From an uncultured Ardenticatenaceae bacterium (GTDB lineage: Bacteria; Chloroflexota; Anaerolineae; Promineifilales; Promineifilaceae), in the NCBI GenBank assembly GCA_964539885.1, contig CAZIKT010000001.1, positions 143,292-207,291 of the forward strand: 64,000 bases of DNA, read 5' to 3'. This document shows, piece by piece, positions 22,227-31,858 of the stretch (position 1 is the first letter of the stretch; each line of letters begins with the position of its first letter). The translations under genes were made by a program, and so were the position numbers. The notes under the pieces are model-generated. The model ran no database searches, was not told the origin of the DNA, and saw only the letters and a list, made by a program, of their open reading frames with translations.

Positions 22227-22382
22227 GCTAGCATAGCAATCTTGAGCCTGCCAGGATGGACATACGCGCCCAGCGTAAGTAGTTCGCAGATCGGTCAAAG
22301 GATTGACCAAGCGGGTTAAGGAACCGTGCGTTGCGCCGGTCTCCCAGGTTTCCAAGCTAGGCAAAAAAAGGGGCACGATATT

Positions 22383-23666
22383 ATGAAAGCTCGGTTTCGT
22401 CTTCCTGCAATCTTGCTTATGCTGTTGGTTGCCGCCTTGATAGGGGGATGCAGAGAGCCTGCGCCGGATAGTGGGCCGGTCGGACCTGCGGGGCCGCCCG
22501 GACCGATGGGGCCGGTTGGTCCCGCCGGAGAAAACGCGTCGGCCAGCCAGCAGTACGTCGGCTCCGAAAGCTGCGGCTCTTGCCACGAGGACCAATACGC
22601 TACCTTTGTCCTGTCCGGCCATCCCTACCAGCTGACCAAGATTGAAAACGGAGAGCCACCGGTATTCCCTTATGATGAGATAACCGACGGCATCCCCTCT
22701 CCGCCGGACGGCTATGAGTGGGCCGATGTCTCCTACGTCGTGGGCGGTTATGGTTGGAAGGCGCAGTTCCTGGACCTGGACGGCTACATCATTGCGGGAG
22801 ATGAGGAGACTGCCACCCAATACAACTTAGCCAATGAAGATCTGGAGTTGCCGGCTGGCTGGGTCCCCTATCATTCCGGCGAGCAACTATCCTACGACTG
22901 CGGCACCTGCCATACGACCGGCTATCAGCCGGAAGGTCATCAAGATGCCTTGGAGGGAATTGTGGGCGTCTGGGCCTACCCCGGCGTCCAGTGTGAGGCG
23001 TGCCACGGGCCGGGCAGCCTGCATGCCGCCGATCCCTATGGAGTCCGCATGGTCCTCGATCGCTCCTCACAGATGTGCGGCGATTGCCACATGCGCGACA
23101 ACCCGGCGCTGATCGACGCCGGCGACGGCCTTGAGCAGAATTATCAGCAATATGACGACCTGTACAACTCCCGCCATTTCGCCATTAGCTGCGTGACTTG
23201 CCACGATCCGCATGCCGGCGTGCGCTTCACCGACCCGGAGGCAACGAGCGCACAGGGTATTCGGCAATCATGTGAGAATTGCCATTGGGCGCAGGTCATA
23301 CAGAAGAATGAGCGCCGGCACTTCAACCTGACCTGCACCACATGCCACATGCCGGCCATGGCCGTCTCCGCGCAATCCATTGCGGAGGAATTCAGCGGCG
23401 ATATTCACTCCCATCAATTCGCCATCAACACGGACCCGAACGCGCCGCAGTTCAGTGAAGACGGCAGTCAGGTAATGCCGTACATCACGCTGCAATATGC
23501 CTGCCAGCAGTGCCATAACGGTTCCTTTTTCAGTGAGCAGGACCTTGTGACGCTGTCGGAGATGGCCCGTGACTATCACGAGCCGGCGACCGCCACGCCT
23601 ACGCCGGAACCGACGTCGACAGTCGAATCAGGCGAGGAGACGCCCACCCCCACGCCGACTCCGTAG
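22383..23666 (+). CDS. octaheme c-type cytochrome lipoprotein with an N-terminal collagen-like stalk
   Basis: Lipobox LIGGC. Eight CXXCH sites (CGSCH, CGTCH, CEACH, CGDCH, CVTCH, CENCH, CTTCH, CQQCH). First site resembles the cytochrome c554-type context (C..CH...Y......GH). Pro/Thr-rich C-terminal tail. Confidence 0.9.
   Translation: MKARFRLPAILLMLLVAALIGGCREPAPDSGPVGPAGPPGPMGPVGPAGENASASQQYVGSESCGSCHEDQYATFVLSGHPYQLTKIENGEPPVFPYDEITDGIPSPPDGYEWADVSYVVGGYGWKAQFLDLDGYIIAGDEETATQYNLANEDLELPAGWVPYHSGEQLSYDCGTCHTTGYQPEGHQDALEGIVGVWAYPGVQCEACHGPGSLHAADPYGVRMVLDRSSQMCGDCHMRDNPALIDAGDGLEQNYQQYDDLYNSRHFAISCVTCHDPHAGVRFTDPEATSAQGIRQSCENCHWAQVIQKNERRHFNLTCTTCHMPAMAVSAQSIAEEFSGDIHSHQFAINTDPNAPQFSEDGSQVMPYITLQYACQQCHNGSFFSEQDLVTLSEMARDYHEPATATPTPEPTSTVESGEETPTPTPTP
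22473..22535 (+). repeat. collagen-like Gly-X-Y repeat (7 triplets) within the octaheme cytochrome
   Basis: GPV GPA GPP GPM GPV GPA GEN, starting 7 residues after the lipobox Cys. Confidence 0.85.
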
Positions 23667-23700
23667 CGGAGCCGCAATCAAGTGACTCGGAGGTAATCCT

Positions 23701-25425
23701 ATGCGCAGGCTCTTCAGGGGTATCAAGCATTTCTTTCTTCCTCCACCAGGGAGTTCAGTCTGGCTGCGCATCCTGCCGTTTGTCGTCCTTGGTGTACTGA
23801 CAGTATTTGTGCTCAGCGGCTCGTCTTACGCCTGGACGTACACCAACTCGCCTGAGTTTTGCGGGAGCGCCTGCCACACGATGCCGCCCAACTACAGCAC
23901 CTATCTGCAATCGCCGCACGCCCGCGTGCAGTGCGTCGAATGTCATATTGGCCGGGATGTGATCACCACCCAATTCACCCGCAAGGCTGGCGACCTGCGA
24001 CATGTCTACTACACGATTACTCAAGACTTCGAGTATCCCATTCATTCCGAGGCGATGCGCCCGGCGCGGGACAGCTGTGAAAGATGTCATTTCCCCGAGA
24101 AGTTTTCCGACGATAGCCTGCGCCTTATCCGCGACTATGAGGGTGAAGACAACTCGCTGCTCACCACGCATCTACTGATGAAGACCGGCGGTGGCAGCCA
24201 ACGCGAGGGCCTTGGACGGGGCATACATTGGCACATCGAAAACGAGGTGTGGTATCTGGCCGAGGACCAGCTCGAGCAAGACATTCCTTATGTGCGCGTC
24301 GTAGACGAAGATGGGCAGATTTCGGAATTCTACGACATTGAATCCGGCATCACGCCGGATGATGTTGCCGGCAAAAGCCTGGAGCTGATGGACTGTATCA
24401 ATTGCCACAATCGCGTGACCCACACCGTGCCCAGCCCGGAAGACGCCATCGACCTGGCCTTCACGAGCGGGCAGTTGTCCAGAGACCTGCCGGCAATTTA
24501 CGATGCCGCGTATGAGCGGCTCAGTCAGATCTACACCGACAGTCAGGCCGCGGAAGAGAGCTTTGACTCCGTGGTGGATTTCTATGCCGAGGGGTATCCG
24601 GACATCTACAGTGAGCGCCAAGAAGAAATCGAGGCGATCCCGGCCGTGCTCGCGGACCTCTATAGTCAGATGGTGTTCGGCGACCAGCGCGTGGATTGGA
24701 AGACACATCCAGATAATCTGGGCCATGTCAACTCTCCCGGCTGTTTTCGCTGCCACGACGGCAAGCATCTGAGCGGCACAGGGGAGGCGATCCGCCTGGA
24801 GTGCAACCTGTGTCATTCAGTGCCGATCATCAGCGATGAAACCACCCTGGTCACTAACCTGGAACTTGTGCGCGGGCCGGAACCGCCGTCGCACATTCAT
24901 AGCAGTTGGATAGCGTTGCACGGTAAAGCCATTGATTCCTCATGCGCGGCCTGCCATGAACCGGCCGATCCGGAAATGGATTACACCGCGCTGGAAGGCA
25001 GACCTCCCAATGACGGCTCTTTTTGCGGCAATGCGGCCTGTCATGGCCCTGACTGGGAGTATGCCGGCTTCGACTCCCCGGCGCTGGAACCCTTCCTGGA
25101 GCGCCAGCTTTACATCCTGCAAAACACCAGCCCTTATCTGCTGGAAGGCGTGCCGCGCACATATGACAGTACTTTCAAAGCGCTGTTCGATGGACGTTGC
25201 GTCTTCTGCCATGGGACGGAGGAGACCAAGGCAGACCTGGACCTGAGTAGCTATGAGGGGATCATGCAAGGCGGCAAAAGCGGACCCGTCATCGTTCCTG
25301 GCGACCCGGAGAACAGCGCACTGATCGCAGTGCAATCGGCCTCCCAGGAGCACTTCGGGCAGGTATTGGATGACGAATTGGTCGCGCTGTGGGAATGGCT
25401 TTTGGCGGGGGCGCCTAGGGAATAA
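23701..25425 (+). CDS. NapC/NirT-like membrane-anchored multiheme cytochrome with a C-terminal Planctomycete-cytochrome-C-like domain
   Basis: N-terminal TM helix, then a NapC/NirT-like context (SPEFCGSACHTM...SPHARVQCVECH). Seven CXXCH sites plus CGSACH (CX3CH) and CGNAACH (CX4CH). C-terminal FDGRCVFCHG...LDLSSYEGIMQGG...VPGDPENSALI. RBS GGAGG lies before the ATG. Confidence 0.9.
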   Translation: MRRLFRGIKHFFLPPPGSSVWLRILPFVVLGVLTVFVLSGSSYAWTYTNSPEFCGSACHTMPPNYSTYLQSPHARVQCVECHIGRDVITTQFTRKAGDLRHVYYTITQDFEYPIHSEAMRPARDSCERCHFPEKFSDDSLRLIRDYEGEDNSLLTTHLLMKTGGGSQREGLGRGIHWHIENEVWYLAEDQLEQDIPYVRVVDEDGQISEFYDIESGITPDDVAGKSLELMDCINCHNRVTHTVPSPEDAIDLAFTSGQLSRDLPAIYDAAYERLSQIYTDSQAAEESFDSVVDFYAEGYPDIYSERQEEIEAIPAVLADLYSQMVFGDQRVDWKTHPDNLGHVNSPGCFRCHDGKHLSGTGEAIRLECNLCHSVPIISDETTLVTNLELVRGPEPPSHIHSSWIALHGKAIDSSCAACHEPADPEMDYTALEGRPPNDGSFCGNAACHGPDWEYAGFDSPALEPFLERQLYILQNTSPYLLEGVPRTYDSTFKALFDGRCVFCHGTEETKADLDLSSYEGIMQGGKSGPVIVPGDPENSALIAVQSASQEHFGQVLDDELVALWEWLLAGAPRE

Positions 25426-25544: not shown

Positions 25545-27797
25545 CTAAGGCGCCGGTTCTTCAGGGACGACAACCGGCGGCCGGCTCAGCGCTGATACAT
25601 CCCCACCCACACTGGCAATCGAATCGTAAAGGATCTGCATCACGTAATCGCCGTTGTGGGCGAACGCGCCGGGATCCTTCTGCGAATACTGATAGTTGTA
25701 GGCGGCGCGCAACAGGGCCGGCGTCCAGGATGCATACCCTTCGGTATCGGCGGCAGACGCTACACCATCGGCGTCCGCATCCACAAAGAAGTATGGATAG
25801 CGAGCCGGGTTGTACACAATCGGCGTGCCGATCGTGTTAGCCGCGTAACCTTGGAATGCGGCGTAGAGTAACTCGGCTAGTGTTGCCACCTCGCCGGCGA
25901 TGCCTTCGGTTACGTCGCCATCCCCATCGTAATCGACCGGAGTTTCATCATCATCGTCGAAGCGGATGTTGACCAGATCGTCCATGGTCTCGACGCCCTC
26001 GTGGCAGTCAGCGCATTCCTCGAACTGCACTTCCAGGGTATGGGTACCGTGACATTCCGTGCAGGCGTTGAAAGCGTTAACGTGTTCGTTTTGGCCGTTG
26101 TACTCCAGGCCCTCGAACTCATATGCCCCTTGAGCCTCAGTTCCAAAGAGCGTCGCGCCGGCGGCGAAGTAATGGATGTTGCGGAATCCCAGCGAATCCG
26201 ACACCTCGTCATCGCCCAGCTCACCTATCGCGCGATTCACACTCGCCGTGGACTCGCGCCCCTGGTGGCAATTCAAGCAGAGGTTGCTGCCGGGATCGTC
26301 CAGGGCTAGCTCGGCTCCACTTGGGAACGTGACTGACTCAACCTCATAGATGGTGAACTCGCCCACATCACTGTGGCAGGTGGAGCAGGCCAAGCCGTTG
26401 GAAGCCGGCTGGTTGATGGCCACGTTCTGCTCGATGTACAGCGGCAGGCCGGCAGCGCTGTGGCAGCGGCTGCAGCTCCCCGGCACGATCCCACCGTCTT
26501 CTTCGCCGTCCCAGTGCCGGAAGGCTTCTTCGGAGCCGGCGAAGTGCCCATGATCAATTCGCCGCAGGGCGGCCAAATCCACCGGGGCTGCGATCGATCC
26601 ATTCAGATCTTCGATCGAGTCGTACAGCAACTGGATGATGTATTTGCCGCCATGTGCGAAGCGACCAGGATCCTTCAGGGACACCTGGTAGTTGTATGCG
26701 GCGCGGGTCAGGCGCGGAGTCCAGGTGGCATAGCGCTCGGTCTCATCTTCGCCGATGGTACCATCGCCGTTGGCGTCGATGAAGAAGTAGGGATGGCTAT
26801 CGCCGTTGTAGCCAATGGGCGAGCCGGCTACCTCGTTTGCATATGCTTGCACTGAGGTGAGCAGAATGTCCCGCATGCCGTCAATCTCGAATGCAATGCC
26901 TTCGTCCATGTCGCCGTCGCCGTCGTAGTCAACCAACGACCCCGGCATACGCACGTCCTGGAAATCCTCAACTGTTTCCACGTCAGTGTGGCATGCAGTG
27001 CACTCCTCAACCTGCACCTCCAGGGTGTGCGGGTCATGGCAAGAGTTGCACGTGTTGTACCCATCTACATGGTCGTAACGGGCATCATATGATTTCCCCG
27101 CGTATTCATAACCACCCTTCGCCAGCGTGCCGTACTGCGTCGCTGCCGCCGCGTAGTAATGGATATTGGAGAAACCGAGGTCTTCACTCACTGTGTCGGG
27201 TGCCTCCGCCAATCCCGCGTCCGCGATCTTCTGATCAACAGAAACGGTAGATTCGCGACCCTGGTGACACTCCATGCAGCGCGACTCATCACCCAATCCG
27301 GTGACTTCAAGCCCTGATGGGAAGACCACACTGTCCTTGGTAATCGTTACGTCATTGTGGCAGGCAGCGCACTCCACCGTGGTACCGATCGGCGCCGCCA
27401 CATCCACCACACCGGCTTCCGATCCATCGAGACCAAGGAAATCCTGGTATCCCGGCGTGCTGTGACACTTGGCGCAACTCGTCGGAATCTCTGCTGGATC
27501 CTCTTCGTTCCAGTGGACAAACGCCTCGGCGGTGGTGTCGTTGTGCGGAGACGATTCCCAGCGCTCGACGAAGACCATCTCGTCCGCCGCGCTGACTTCG
27601 GGCACCGGACATTCTTCACATACCGGCGCCTCAACTTCCGGGCACACAGCCTCTTCCACGTCCGGACATTCCGCCGCGACTTCCACCTCCACAATACGTG
27701 TTACTTCTACCGGCTCTTGCTGTTCGTCGCTACATGCCGCCAGAGCCAGGGCGACGAGGAGCAGTAGCGCCATGATAATCAGGCTTTTTCGTTGCAT
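25545..27797 (-). CDS. decaheme c-type cytochrome lipoprotein built from a tandemly duplicated pentaheme module
   Basis: ATG at 27797, lipobox LALAAC. Ten CXXCH sites (CAKCH, CAACH, CMECH, CNSCH, CTACH / CSRCH, CSTCH, CLNCH, CTECH, CADCH). The two halves align residue-for-residue over about 310 aa. Confidence 0.9.
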   Translation of the reverse strand: MQRKSLIIMALLLLVALALAACSDEQQEPVEVTRIVEVEVAAECPDVEEAVCPEVEAPVCEECPVPEVSAADEMVFVERWESSPHNDTTAEAFVHWNEEDPAEIPTSCAKCHSTPGYQDFLGLDGSEAGVVDVAAPIGTTVECAACHNDVTITKDSVVFPSGLEVTGLGDESRCMECHQGRESTVSVDQKIADAGLAEAPDTVSEDLGFSNIHYYAAAATQYGTLAKGGYEYAGKSYDARYDHVDGYNTCNSCHDPHTLEVQVEECTACHTDVETVEDFQDVRMPGSLVDYDGDGDMDEGIAFEIDGMRDILLTSVQAYANEVAGSPIGYNGDSHPYFFIDANGDGTIGEDETERYATWTPRLTRAAYNYQVSLKDPGRFAHGGKYIIQLLYDSIEDLNGSIAAPVDLAALRRIDHGHFAGSEEAFRHWDGEEDGGIVPGSCSRCHSAAGLPLYIEQNVAINQPASNGLACSTCHSDVGEFTIYEVESVTFPSGAELALDDPGSNLCLNCHQGRESTASVNRAIGELGDDEVSDSLGFRNIHYFAAGATLFGTEAQGAYEFEGLEYNGQNEHVNAFNACTECHGTHTLEVQFEECADCHEGVETMDDLVNIRFDDDDETPVDYDGDGDVTEGIAGEVATLAELLYAAFQGYAANTIGTPIVYNPARYPYFFVDADADGVASAADTEGYASWTPALLRAAYNYQYSQKDPGAFAHNGDYVMQILYDSIASVGGDVSALSRPPVVVPEEPAP

Positions 27798-27923
27798 AGT
27801 TCTGCGCCCCTTTATTATCATTCACTCCCGGGTCCGGAGGGCATGCGCACAGGGCAGGTGCTCCTGACAGACCCTTTTCCTGTACAAGGCCGGCTGACCA
27901 ATGACCGGCGTGACGACCATCTC

Positions 27924-28769
27924 TTATGGCGCCGGCGTAACGGTTGGCACCACAGTAATGATGGCCGTCTCTTCAAAGGTAAATGCCCAGATTATTACGA
28001 CTAACAGCAGTGCGCCCACCACCAAGCTGAACGCAAAGAAGATTCGCTGCCGGTGTCGCAATACGGGCTTCTCAACGATTGGCCACGGTTCGCCTCCGGC
28101 ATCTAGCCGCTCCAGTTCCAATGCATGTTCCTCCTCCATTTGCTTACGCGACATCGTGCCTGTAAACATACTGCGATTAAAATGCTTGATGTGCACATTG
28201 TACATGTGCCAGACGATCAGGGCGGAGACAGCGAGGATGGCCTCCCAGCCATGCGCCGCCTTCGCCATGGGAATGAGTTCGCCGGGAAAGATAGAGGTAA
28301 AGGCAATGGGGTTCCACATGATGAAGCCGGTAATGGTCATCAGCGCGGTACCCCAAAGTACAGCCCAGTACTCGAATTTTTCGCCGAAGTTGAACTTCAG
28401 CATCTTGGGCGGCTCCTCCTGCAAACCCAAATTGTGTTTGACGGTGCCCGTTAAGTCGTCCAGGTCCTTGCGGGTCGGGAACATCGGCATGCGTTCCCGC
28501 CGGACAAAAAAGCGATATGCAGCCACCCCCAAACTATAGATTGAGCCGAGCACCAGCACGACCGCGGCATAATGGTGAATGATGCGCACATTGGTGATGC
28601 CCCCCAACCAACCGACAAGCGTCTGTGCCCACGGTTGAGTCTCCCACATTTGTGGCAGGCCCGTGATCGCCAGAGTTGTGAAGCTGAAGATCAGTATGAG
28701 ATGTTCGATCCGCGCTCCCAGGCGGAATCGGGGGTAATGGGTTGGTAACTCGCGGGTGGACTCACTCAT
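27924..28769 (-). CDS. b-type cytochrome membrane subunit (FdnI / Ni-Fe-hydrogenase cytochrome b-like)
   Basis: Four core TM helices with conserved His (IEHLIL, IIHHYA, AAHGWE, VWHMYN), plus an extra C-terminal TM helix. Lies immediately downstream of the 14-heme gene. Confidence 0.8.
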   Translation of the reverse strand: MSESTRELPTHYPRFRLGARIEHLILIFSFTTLAITGLPQMWETQPWAQTLVGWLGGITNVRIIHHYAAVVLVLGSIYSLGVAAYRFFVRRERMPMFPTRKDLDDLTGTVKHNLGLQEEPPKMLKFNFGEKFEYWAVLWGTALMTITGFIMWNPIAFTSIFPGELIPMAKAAHGWEAILAVSALIVWHMYNVHIKHFNRSMFTGTMSRKQMEEEHALELERLDAGGEPWPIVEKPVLRHRQRIFFAFSLVVGALLLVVIIWAFTFEETAIITVVPTVTPAP

Positions 28770-28800: not shown

Positions 28801-30477
28801 TCATTCCAGTTGGCGACCAAAACGCAGCCGAACGCGCCGGAAGATATCCGTCGCAACCAAGAAACCGAACCCGATCAGCGTCATGGGAATAACGATGCGG
28901 TAGAAGGTTTCAACCAGGAAGACGCCGGTGTTGTTTTGCAGCGACGGCTCGTAATGACTGGTCCAGGCTGCCGGGAAGTTCTCCGTAGCGTTCGGGTGAC
29001 ATTTCTGGCACGTCTCTAGCAGGTTAGCCTGGATACCGTTTTCGGGATCATCGGGCCGCCGAATGTCGTGCACGCCGTGGCAGTCATAGCAGACCGCCTC
29101 GTTAAAAGGAGCGTTCGGATCTGCGGTCGGATCAAACAACACCGCGGAAGTGCCGTGAAAATCTGACACGTAGGTGTCAAACACGCTGGTGGAGATCTCA
29201 TATTTGGTCATCAGCTCTTTATCAGCGTGGCAACGCGCACAAATCAGCGGCGACCGGGAGCGATAAAGGGTGGTGGTGGGGTCCTGGATATTGTGCACGC
29301 CGTGACAGTCTATGCAGGTGGGCACATCCGGATTGCTGTTTTGCGCCAGCGCCTCACCGTGAACGCTGTCCACGTACTCGTCATGGATCTCCTGGTGGCA
29401 TTGGGCACACGTCTCTGAGATGCGTTGTCGAGGCTGATTCGGCGGCGGCGTATCGTGCGCGCCGTGACAGTCGGTGCAGACCGCGCCATCCAGATTGCCG
29501 CCGGCGACCAGGGCGCCATGTACATCATCTACGGCCTTCTCCGCATTCTGTTCGTGACAGCGATGGCAAAGCAGGCTGTTGGCGACAGTGTATTCACGCA
29601 AGCTGCCGGTGTTTGCCGGCGCCTCATGCGGAAATCTGTAGTTCTCGTGACAGTCTGTGCAATTCAGTGGTTGCCAGGGATTATCAGCGCCATGCACTGA
29701 TCCACCAAAGTGGGTCCGATCGACGGTTAGCGATAGCTCCTCCCCATTATCCAGCGTCAGTGTACGCCCCGGCTGATCGTGACAGGCCAGGCAATACTGG
29801 TTATCCACCTGGGACGTGAATAGGCCGTCTCGGATGATTGTCTCAAGGATTTCCGGGTCGGTTTGTGGGACGTCGTTTTTGGTATGACAGTTGACGCATG
29901 CCTGGACACCTTCCGGAGTGGTGAGTGTGGCAACCGGCATCACCTCGTGCGAGCCATGACAATCCGTGCAGACGACTGGATTATCGCTATCCGGGCCGGC
30001 GTGCGCGGTTTCATGCGGCTGCTGATGACAACTCAAACAACTCTCTGAGCGAGCGATCTGGAAGCTGCGCAGATCCGCGGCATCTGTCGGCCCGTGCGGA
30101 AACTGATAATCGCCGGCCGCATGACAACTTGTGCAATTGAGCGGCTCTTCGGCCGACGCGCCGTGAACGGAATCGGCCAATGTCTGCGGGTCCACGGCTA
30201 CCGGCAGCTGCGACCCGTCCGGCAACTCAAGGATTGCCTGTGAACCCTCATGGCAGATCCGGCATTGCAGGTCATCGCCGGGGTGAGGCAGGGGTTCGGC
30301 CGATTGCGCCAACACGCTAGCGACCGGGAGAGCGGACGGTGCAGGGCTATACTTCGTCGGCGACGGATCGCTGGCGGCGCGGCCGGCAGCAAACCACAGC
30401 GCCGATATGAGGAGTACCAGCGCCAGTGCCATACTCACACTGATCAGACTACGATTTCGTCGCTGTGACGAGCCCAA
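28801..30477 (-). CDS. 14-heme c-type cytochrome with a signal peptide and a C-terminal TM anchor
   Basis: 14 CXXCH sites, many in the doubled-CXXCH context C..CHG.H (CTDCHGSHE, CTDCHGAHD, CIDCHGVHN, CYDCHGVHD). The TTG start at 30477 has a GAGGAGAG RBS 9 nt upstream. C-terminal helix IVIPMTLIGFGFLVATDIF. Confidence 0.9.
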   Translation of the reverse strand: MGSSQRRNRSLISVSMALALVLLISALWFAAGRAASDPSPTKYSPAPSALPVASVLAQSAEPLPHPGDDLQCRICHEGSQAILELPDGSQLPVAVDPQTLADSVHGASAEEPLNCTSCHAAGDYQFPHGPTDAADLRSFQIARSESCLSCHQQPHETAHAGPDSDNPVVCTDCHGSHEVMPVATLTTPEGVQACVNCHTKNDVPQTDPEILETIIRDGLFTSQVDNQYCLACHDQPGRTLTLDNGEELSLTVDRTHFGGSVHGADNPWQPLNCTDCHENYRFPHEAPANTGSLREYTVANSLLCHRCHEQNAEKAVDDVHGALVAGGNLDGAVCTDCHGAHDTPPPNQPRQRISETCAQCHQEIHDEYVDSVHGEALAQNSNPDVPTCIDCHGVHNIQDPTTTLYRSRSPLICARCHADKELMTKYEISTSVFDTYVSDFHGTSAVLFDPTADPNAPFNEAVCYDCHGVHDIRRPDDPENGIQANLLETCQKCHPNATENFPAAWTSHYEPSLQNNTGVFLVETFYRIVIPMTLIGFGFLVATDIFRRVRLRFGRQLE

Positions 30478-30565: not shown

Positions 30566-31858
30566 CTAGGGGGTCGGAGTTCCCTCGGTCGGCGCTCCTT
30601 CTTCGATCACTTCTTCAGCCGACGCCTCAACCGGAGGATTATGATATCCTACCGCGGTTTCGATCAACTCCTCATCCGTCTTGTCTCTGCCCAAGCCATC
30701 CGGGTTGTGGCAGCTCCGGCAAGAAGAATTCAGCGCGAGGCGTGGATGGGCCACTGTGCCGTCTTCGTTGAACTGCTCGATCTGGAGCGGGTCAATGGAC
30801 ACTTGATGCGTGCGCATATCGCCTGTGAACTTGGCCGGATCGCCGGCAGCAACCTGGATTATCCTGGGCATGTGGCAGGAAACACAATTCACGTCTATTC
30901 GAGCGTGCACTTCGTTATTCTGGTTCTGCACCTGCGCGAAATGACAGTTCTCGCAATTGACAATTGTGGTAGGCAGTTCAGCTTCACGAAGCTGGACTAC
31001 CCCGGTATGCGGGTCATGACAGACCACACAGTCGAGTATCACATGCTTGCCTTCAAAGAGGTCCTGATACTGGTCGTGATGCTGGATGAAGCCGTCGCTG
31101 CCGGCGACTTCGTCAACCGTTCCCCGGGCGTGACAGGCGGCGCAAGCTGCACTGTCCCGGTCCACGACTGGACGGAAGGAAAGCGGGTGATTGGCATGCA
31201 GGCTGCCGGGGCCGTGACATTCCTCACAACCGATGCCCGCTTCCGCCCAGGTGCCGGTTATGCCCGGCAGACCATCCTGGTTGCCGGATGAGGAGTAGCC
31301 GGTCGTGTGGCAGCGGCCGCAATCGTATGAAATCTCCTCTCCCGGGTGATAGGCTACCCATTCGTCGCGAGTCTCCAACTCGTCATTAGGAAGATTGTAC
31401 TGCGTGGTGGCTTCGGCGCTGTCTCCGGTAATGATCAAGCCGTCCAGACCGATAAAGCGAGCCTTCCAGTTATAGCCGCCTATTACAAACGCTATGTCTT
31501 CCCAGGTGTATCCCTCCGGCGGGTCAGGCACTCGACTGAATGGATAGGTCGGCTCCTCTCCATCAACGACCGCGTTGAGCTGGAAATTGTGCCCACTCAG
31601 AGCGTAGATATCAAACAATTCCTGGTGGCACTCTGCGCAGGCTTCGCTTCCAATGTATTGCGCCGGCTCGAAACTCACCCCGTCCGCTCCTGCCGGCCCG
31701 GACGCGCCGGGCGCTCCATCTCTGCCGGTGGGTCCAGGAAGGCCCTGTGGTCCCTGCGGACCTGGAGGTCCTTGCGGTCCTTCCTGCGGGGCGCAGGCGG
31801 TTATTAACAGGCCTACAGCGATGAAGATGATCCAACTAGAGAGATGAATGCGCCTCAT
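30566..31858 (-). CDS. octaheme c-type cytochrome lipoprotein with an N-terminal collagen-like stalk (paralog of 22383..23666)
   Basis: Lipobox LITAC. Eight CXXCH sites (CAECH, CGRCH, CEECH, CAACH, CVVCH, CENCH, CVSCH, CRSCH). Roughly 50% identity by eye to the other octaheme protein. RBS GGGAGGGAA. Confidence 0.9.
31673..31780 (-). repeat. collagen-like Gly-X-Y repeat (12 triplets) within the octaheme cytochrome
   Basis: [36 protein letters not shown], starting 4 residues after the lipobox Cys. Confidence 0.9.

Follow-up and report, generated by a model that had tools for sequence, protein, structure and literature searches.

Two paralogous octaheme lipoproteins, here called A and B, are encoded in a 64,000-nucleotide stretch of DNA (the window) from an uncultured Ardenticatenaceae bacterium (contig CAZIKT010000001.1, positions 143,292 to 207,291, assembly GCA_964539885.1), and in both of them a collagen-like stalk stands between a predicted lipid anchor and the heme domain. 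An earlier note, made from the letters alone, reported 12 Gly-X-Y triplets at positions 31673-31780 in protein B; translation and a six-frame scan confirm them, and the 108 bases concerned encode a genuine collagen-type Gly-X-Y segment. Comparison with orthologs demonstrates that the design is conserved and falls into two length classes, and we think it probable that the stalks are homotrimeric triple-helix spacers of about 12 nm in B and about 8.6 nm in A (computed at a rise of 0.286 nm per residue), each with a length tuned to the protein's own partner or envelope layer. The features of B, in window coordinates and with amino acids abbreviated as aa, are as follows:

30566-31858, minus strand: open reading frame of octaheme lipoprotein B (430-aa translation, ending in an acidic Pro/Thr tail)
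31796-31858, minus strand: signal peptide, aa 1-21, up to the lipobox (translation; hydrophobic aa 3-21; lipobox position kept in orthologs)
31793-31795, minus strand: lipobox Cys22, predicted lipid-attachment site and mature N-terminus (LITAC fits the lipobox pattern)
31673-31780, minus strand: 12 unbroken Gly-X-Y triplets, aa 27-62 (six-frame Gly-X-Y scan)
31673-31798, minus strand: complete 14-position stalk module, aa 21-62, in register from lipobox residue -1 (per-position ortholog profile; constant 52-aa spacing)
30641-31672, minus strand: octaheme domain, aa 63-406, with 8 CxxCH motifs, OcwA/MccA-like (phmmer against PDB, Foldseek, Pfam multiheme families)
30569-30640, minus strand: acidic Pro/Thr C-terminal tail, 24 aa (translation and tail survey of orthologs)

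The repeat stands out from its genomic background. Only six Gly-X-Y runs of at least 6 triplets occur in the 4.03-Mb genome (all six-frame open reading frames of at least 100 aa); the run in B is the longest of them, and A and B are the sole cytochromes among the six, a distribution that rules out a chance run. Neither the six-frame scan nor a genome search with the Pfam collagen family PF01391 found any other credible Gly-X-Y protein. At the DNA level, Tandem Repeats Finder detects a 9-bp or 18-bp periodicity with 72-73% matches; because this periodicity is weak, the stalk DNA is not a recent perfect tandem repeat. Outside the window, at G000:C12:75897-75968, lies an internal run of 8 triplets (GCDGEDGQDGQDGTDGTDGADGQS) in a 938-aa open reading frame with one CxxCH, which is acidic and Pro-free and in this differs from the cytochrome stalks.

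Both stalks sit directly behind a lipobox. The sequences LITAC (B) and LIGGC (A) match the pattern [LVI][ASTVI][GAS]C, and Cys22 of B is invariant in an 80-sequence alignment (A1). Because the genome encodes both Lgt (PF01790, four matches above the cut-off) and LspA (PF01252, two matches above the cut-off), the lipobox is usable. Four residues, APQE, separate Cys22 from the first strict triplet of B, which begins 5 residues after the cysteine, so that the earlier placement of the stalk a few residues past the lipobox stands. In most orthologs, the Gly-X-Y register opens at the lipobox itself, as Gly(-1)-Cys-x, and because it starts there the complete modules comprise 14 triplet positions in B and 10 in A. 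The module of B is thus 42 residues long, with its first two positions degenerate in the window's protein (ACA, PQE), and it ends 11 residues ahead of the first heme-binding Cys; that of A is 30 residues long, with three degenerate membrane-proximal positions in the window's protein.

Protein A, 41% identical to B, follows the same design, with a LIGGC lipobox, 7 triplets, 8 CxxCH motifs and a tail ending in ETPTPTPTP. Its features are these:

22383-23666, plus strand: octaheme lipoprotein A, 427 aa, with lipobox Cys23 at 22449-22451 (translation; AAAGGGG some 10 nt before the ATG)
22446-22535, plus strand: stalk module of A, 10 positions from lipobox Gly(-1), of which only the last 7 are strict Gly-X-Y triplets (22473-22535; Gly-X-Y scan, ortholog profile, 41-aa spacing)
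23580-23663, plus strand: Pro/Thr-rich C-terminal tail of A, EPATATPTPEPTSTVESGEETPTPTPTP (tail survey of orthologs)

A GTG at 22326 was considered as the start of A and rejected on the evidence of ortholog N-termini and of the purine-rich stretch before the ATG at 22383.

That the paralogs differ in stalk length, with 7 strict triplets in A and 12 in B, had been noticed before; the ortholog comparison now establishes these as two conserved length classes. Ortholog sets comprised the best 120 database matches to B and the best 120 to A, from more than 1,500 proteins that matched each paralog. Among them, 116 of 120 B matches carry 12-14 triplets and 111 of 120 A matches carry 7-10, the spread in counts depending on whether the first positions past the Cys retain Gly. 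Measured between the lipobox Cys and the first heme Cys, the spacing comes to 52 aa in 114 of 120 B orthologs and 41 aa in 104 of 115 A orthologs (at 55-65% identity), and in species-representative genomes it has the same values in 17 of 19 (B) and 28 of 30 (A). The two modules differ by exactly 4 triplets, or about 3.4 nm. Per-position profiles locate all of the looseness next to the membrane: in 114 B orthologs, the Gly frequency is 0.45 and 0.62 at the first two positions and 0.98-1.00 at the following 12 (1.00 at 11 of the 14), and in A it is 0.55, 0.62 and 0.91 before reaching 1.00 at all seven remaining positions. The X and Y positions are variable, with Pro in 42-63% of X and 15-23% of Y, and beyond Gly the best-conserved triplets are those next to the heme domain (QGPPGPAG..GxPGPAGxDGLS in B, GPVGPAG in A). 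A collagen triple helix can pack only with Gly at every third residue; the combination of an invariant Gly at each third residue, free X and Y, high Pro and zero tolerance of insertions or deletions (indels) is the signature of such packing and would not mark a disordered tether or a monomeric polyproline one.

The same constancy holds over short evolutionary distances. Relative to a same-genus genome at 85% identity (G001), the stalk of B has accumulated 18 synonymous and 4 non-synonymous differences in 40 codons with 0 indels (heme domain: 108 synonymous and 46 non-synonymous differences in 338 codons), and a near-identical strain variant likewise leaves its length unchanged, so that the random variation of repeat number among close relatives raised in the earlier note is not seen here. 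A signal peptide and lipobox lie in frame upstream of the stalk in every full-length ortholog. Each stalk length is a clade-specific constant under purifying selection.

A heme-domain tree places A and B in separate clades (support 0.98 and 0.83). An exhaustive search recovered 264 relatives at E<=1e-30 (50%-identity representatives), and 28 of the best 149 representatives carry at least 5 triplets after the lipobox, with counts of 6, 7, 8, 11, 12, 13, 15, 16, 18, 20, 27 and 41. These stalk-bearing relatives mostly cluster around A and B, and most distant members of the family have short ordinary linkers; stalk length is variable between clades and fixed within them. Among the longer relatives, P0255 (41 triplets, 72 bits) and P0343 (38 bits) pass the PF01391 cut-off. 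Named homologs come from metagenome-assembled genomes of Anaerolineae/Ardenticatenia-type Chloroflexota (Promineifilaceae, Ardenticatenaceae, 'Ca. Leptofilum').

Several relatives show further variations on this architecture. P0255, P0268, P0269 and P0270 carry 41, 27, 20 and 18 triplets past the lipobox and form a natural length series. In P0279, P0285, P0288, P0298, P0343 and P0356, Cys/Asp-rich 'CWDLDxDG..D' motifs stand between the collagen run and the heme domain, and by their sequence these resemble thrombospondin type 3 or dockerin-like repeats of the calcium-binding kind. There are also tandem octaheme fusions of 714-724 aa with 15-16 CxxCH motifs, as well as one protein of 1398 aa with four matched stretches (P0006, P0124, P0146, P0236, P0242); the fusions that were checked have a lipobox and no collagen stalk.

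The two lipoproteins head two convergent operons, an A-type operon in which A is followed by a NapC/NirT-like cytochrome, and a B-type operon in which B is followed by a 14-heme cytochrome, a cytochrome b and a 10-heme lipoprotein:

23701-25425, plus strand: NapC/NirT-like membrane cytochrome, 574 aa, with 7 CxxCH, one CX3CH and one CX4CH motif and an N-terminal transmembrane segment (Pfam, motif and transmembrane-segment count)
28801-30477, minus strand: 14-heme cytochrome with N- and C-terminal hydrophobic segments (Pfam, motif count)
27924-28769, minus strand: cytochrome b of the B operon, PF01292, Ni_hydr_CYTB/FdnI-like (Pfam; position kept in 12 clusters)
25545-27821, minus strand: lipoprotein cytochrome of 758 aa with 10 hemes, closing the B operon, whose acidic Val/Glu/Pro tether is not collagen-like (translation, Pfam, motif count)

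These pairings are conserved: A adjoins a NapC-like gene in 28 of 29 other genomes and B adjoins a 14-heme gene in 18 of 19, the whole six-gene arrangement recurs in 10 other genomes, and in at least 10 genomes A and B lie 8-14 kb apart within one conserved cluster. Comparison of the conserved clusters found no consistently encoded partner other than cytochromes. In a sample of 151 genomes of the order, the family is present in 108; A occurs in 39 of these, together with B in 33 and alone in 6 (four of the six belonging to one genus), and B occurs without A in 69. Two genomes of the window's own genus (G001 and G002) have the B operon only, without A and its NapC-like neighbour. At the corresponding same-genus loci (L061 and L062), the module formed by A and the NapC/NirT-like gene (22383-25425) is absent, and in G002 a hydrolase gene is directly followed by the 10-heme gene; because both same-genus genomes lack the module, it was recently gained at, or lost from, its position.

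The heme domains belong with the envelope multiheme cytochromes of monoderm bacteria. Pfam assigns the Cytochrome_C7, C554, Paired_CXXCH and MtrC/MtrF II-IV families to A and B, and across 80 sequences the 8 CxxCH motifs are kept, as are other His residues, 7 of them invariant and 2 nearly so. By phmmer, the best PDB matches are 6I5B, which is OcwA of Thermincola potens (E=3.5e-14 over aa 50-252), and 6QVM, an undecaheme cytochrome from the S-layer of Carboxydothermus ferrireducens (E=2.4e-7); Foldseek on an AlphaFold model returns 6QVM, 6I5B and, at E=2.6e-5, 4RKM (MccA, the Wolinella succinogenes octaheme sulfite reductase), all at probability 1.00. OcwA and 6QVM, both envelope multiheme cytochromes of monoderms, share with A and B an NrfA/MccA-related fold and are the best matches in sequence and in fold, but they bind nine and eleven hemes, respectively, rather than eight, at 18-20% identity and template modelling (TM) scores of 0.37-0.46, and phmmer alignments to the solved chains show no collagen-like match. 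MccA, a soluble enzyme of the periplasm, carries a copper site and a CX15CH heme. It too binds eight hemes and falls within the structural superfamily of A and B, which are unlike it in having 8 plain CxxCH motifs, a lipid anchor and a stalk. OcwA is a characterised cell-surface terminal reductase for extracellular electron transfer, and the paper describing it mentions a signal peptide; searching its text for the word 'lipoprotein' gave nothing (PMC6703420). A His-His pair at aa 259-260 of B (FIQHHDQY; GFIQHHxQY in orthologs) is conserved and recalls the HH motifs over five-coordinate hemes in OcwA: if the two are equivalent, the head with its eight hemes could act as a catalyst and not just carry electrons.

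Because each module spans the distance from the predicted lipid-attachment Cys to 11-12 residues before the first heme, we read the modules as fixed-length trimerising spacers. The stalks of three copies of a protein would wind together into a collagen triple helix, a homotrimer in which the heme domains are trimerised as well, and the resulting stiff spacer would keep the heme head about 12 nm (B) or about 8.6 nm (A) from its anchor in the cytoplasmic membrane, at the level of the wall in a monoderm Chloroflexota cell. There, B could exchange electrons, in either direction, with the adjacent quinol module of 14-heme cytochrome and cytochrome b and with the 10-heme lipoprotein, and A could do so, again in either direction, with the adjacent NapC/NirT-like cytochrome. 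Any helix would be homotrimeric, given that the genome encodes no further credible Gly-X-Y protein and that B occurs alone in most genomes; a heterotrimer with another collagen-like protein is ruled out on the same grounds. Design, conservation, length classes and gene pairings are thus read directly from the genomes, and from them we infer the triple helix, the trimeric state, the rigidity and height of the rod and the direction of electron flow. MccA is a homotrimer, which agrees with a trimeric head.

Several observations weigh against a triple helix. Protein B scores 25.2 bits against PF01391, below the gathering cut-off of 27.2, although the same stretch reaches 29.3 bits in the six-frame genome search and so passes it; a PF01391 search of protein A gave no match. 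In the AlphaFold monomer model, built from 80 homologs, the mean predicted local distance difference test (pLDDT) score is a moderate 72.7 and falls to about 50-56 over the stalk, and the TM-scores to known folds, 0.37-0.46, come from this same model. Stalks of 10-14 triplets without hydroxyproline would be marginally stable alone (cf. (PPG)10-type peptides), and folding would therefore rely on the head domain or on confinement at the membrane. Moreover, OcwA, the nearest solved relative, is a mixture of monomers and dimers and not a trimer (PMC6703420).

Some of these observations would suit a Gly-X-Y segment that is a monomeric, extended, polyproline-II-like tether, providing reach and some stiffness with neither triple helix nor trimer. 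The stalk is short, at 10-14 triplet positions, its two or three membrane-proximal positions accept residues other than Gly, AlphaFold confidence over it is low, the monomer/dimer mixture of OcwA (PMC6703420) fits, and disordered N-terminal tethers are common in lipoproteins, including two other cytochromes of the window. We consider such a tether somewhat unlikely, however: it has no known need for Gly at each third residue, yet Gly is invariant at 7 (A) and 11 (B) consecutive positions in more than 100 orthologs each, and relatives with 27 and 41 triplets pass the Pfam collagen threshold. Stalk lengths are also exact to the residue, whereas those of tails and other linkers drift; as an internal control, the tails at the C-terminus of the very same proteins vary in length with a standard deviation of about 5 aa. 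In addition, the other lipoprotein cytochromes of the window are tethered by Pro/Glu/Thr or Val/Glu linkers and not by Gly-X-Y, so that Gly-X-Y would not be needed for a generic tether. A slippage-prone low-complexity repeat with random copy number (i.e., phase or contingency variation), or a coding artefact, might be suspected from the 9-bp and 18-bp periodicity and from public gene calls that begin after the stalk (386 aa for P0123 and 370 aa for P0394), but it has practically no chance of being correct, given that repeat matches reach just 72-73%, that 18 synonymous and 4 non-synonymous changes relative to G001 came without an indel, that length is invariant over more than 200 orthologs, and that every full-length ortholog has its signal peptide and lipobox in frame upstream. 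It is also very improbable that the rod is mainly a binding element for wall polymer, sheath, S-layer or mineral instead of a passive ruler: the conserved heme-proximal triplets could mark a surface for binding, the known collagen-like proteins of bacteria serve as surface adhesins (PMC8968730), and the collagen-like regions of Scl1 or C1q bind ligands, but X and Y are variable in the membrane-proximal half, only cytochromes are consistently co-encoded, and the conserved triplets may just as well nucleate folding.

What the two lengths are for is a separate matter. According to the earlier note, the heme domains of A and B would sit at different heights and hand electrons over as a staggered relay across the wall. 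Two conserved length classes exactly 4 triplets apart, the joint presence of A and B in 33 of 39 A-bearing genomes and their recurrence 8-14 kb apart in one six-gene cluster in at least 10 genomes speak for such a relay. As a general function, it fails: B occurs alone in 69 of the 108 family-bearing genomes and A alone in 6 (four in one genus), neither A nor its NapC-like neighbour is present in G001 and G002, and each paralog comes with its own membrane cytochrome, suggesting two parallel entry points and not a series. We regard the relay as improbable overall, and possible in the 33 genomes that hold both proteins; a length tuned to each protein's own partner or envelope layer is more likely. 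An extension of the triple-helix spacer, which we hold to be rather unlikely, is that the stalks act as molecular rulers, with two quantised rods (about 8.6 and about 12 nm) setting 24-heme trimeric heads at two envelope levels; joined by the NapC-like protein, the 14-heme/cytochrome b pair and the 10-heme protein, these would make up a layered electron conduit of fixed geometry from quinol to surface. If true, this would be a wall crossing unlike porin-cytochrome complexes or cytochrome nanowires.

A and B extend two known kinds of protein, namely the monoderm envelope multiheme cytochromes discussed above and the bacterial collagen-like surface proteins that combine a rod with a head. In collectins, ficolins and the C1q/TNF family, short stalks of about 11-25 triplets are nucleated by a trimeric head and act as spacers of defined length; these proteins are eukaryotic, hydroxylated and secreted, and they have no membrane lipid anchor, unlike A and B, and no homology is implied. 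Bacterial parallels are Scl1 and Scl2 of Streptococcus and BclA of Bacillus, in which, as in A and B, a hydroxyproline-free Gly-X-Y rod projects a globular head (a 'lollipop'), and whose rods are homotrimeric triple helices (PMC8968730). Rods of the Scl/BclA type run to tens of triplets and vary among strains, whereas those of A and B have 10 or 14 positions and are fixed to the residue; the former have a C-terminal LPXTG or an exosporium basal-layer anchor and adhesin or trimerisation heads, whereas A and B have an N-terminal lipid and a redox head. The two cytochromes thus work like Scl/BclA proteins but are not members of that group.

Full-text literature searches returned no description of collagen-like segments in multiheme cytochromes. 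A 2022 review of prokaryotic collagen-like proteins contains neither 'cytochrome' nor 'lipoprotein' (PMC8968730), and the paper on extracellular electron transfer in Ardenticatena, whose cultured species A. maritima, a relative of the present bacterium, is described as a monoderm filament with surface heme proteins, does not mention collagen (PMC5808234). One automated JGI name does read 'Collagen triple helix repeat/Cytochrome c554'. How electrons cross the wall of monoderm or filamentous bacteria that have no outer-membrane porin-cytochrome complex is poorly understood, and simple geometry would provide an answer if a collagen rod of fixed length joined the lipid anchor to the multiheme head. 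The design is widespread (more than 1,500 database matches per paralog; the family in 108 of 151 genomes of the order), and its two clade-specific lengths, along with the relatives that have 8-41 triplets, offer a series with which membrane distance can be tested as a selected variable. It also adds a redox enzyme to the few known functions of prokaryotic collagen-like domains and provides very short, hydroxyproline-free triple-helix candidates for biomaterials.

Databases partly hide this design, because public gene calls for the two paralogs begin past the anchor. The database call for the window's A (P0123) has 386 aa and starts at MGPVGPAGEN, downstream of the anchor, and B appears in JGI/IMG (P0394, P0391) as a 370-aa protein starting at GTG/Val61. 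These calls lack the signal peptide and the lipobox, and with them most or all of the stalk (22326-22535 and 31673-31858), and comparably shortened calls occur among orthologs (P0183, P0220, P0238), exposing a systematic annotation error in which gene starts placed past the stalk conceal the anchor.

The Pro/Thr tails described in the earlier note, which likened them to possibly glycosylated, wall-spanning linkers, are present at the C-termini of both proteins, are rich in Pro, Thr and Glu, and drift in length among orthologs, from 9 to 39 aa in A (P 33%, T 25%, E 14%) and from 12 to 55 aa in B (P 23%, E 22%, A 14%, T 13%). In A-type orthologs of about 509 aa (P0150, P0168, P0190), an extra class I cytochrome c (PF00034/PF13442) follows the tail, and in B-type orthologs of about 510 aa (P0048, P0088, P0092) the tail is followed by an extra domain labelled PF27154 in the database. 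Because of these additional C-terminal domains, the tail is an interdomain linker in some relatives; the tails are length-variable disordered extensions. The linker of the 10-heme lipoprotein (25545-27821) was considered as a control for drifting tethers and discarded in favour of the C-terminal tails, its length being itself fairly constant at 82-86 aa in 5 orthologs. This tether lies past the lipobox and, in relatives, contains 'VEVTRVVEVEV'-like Val/Glu units; in the window's genus, it holds four extra Cys residues (..AAECPDVEEAVCPEVEAPVCEECP..).

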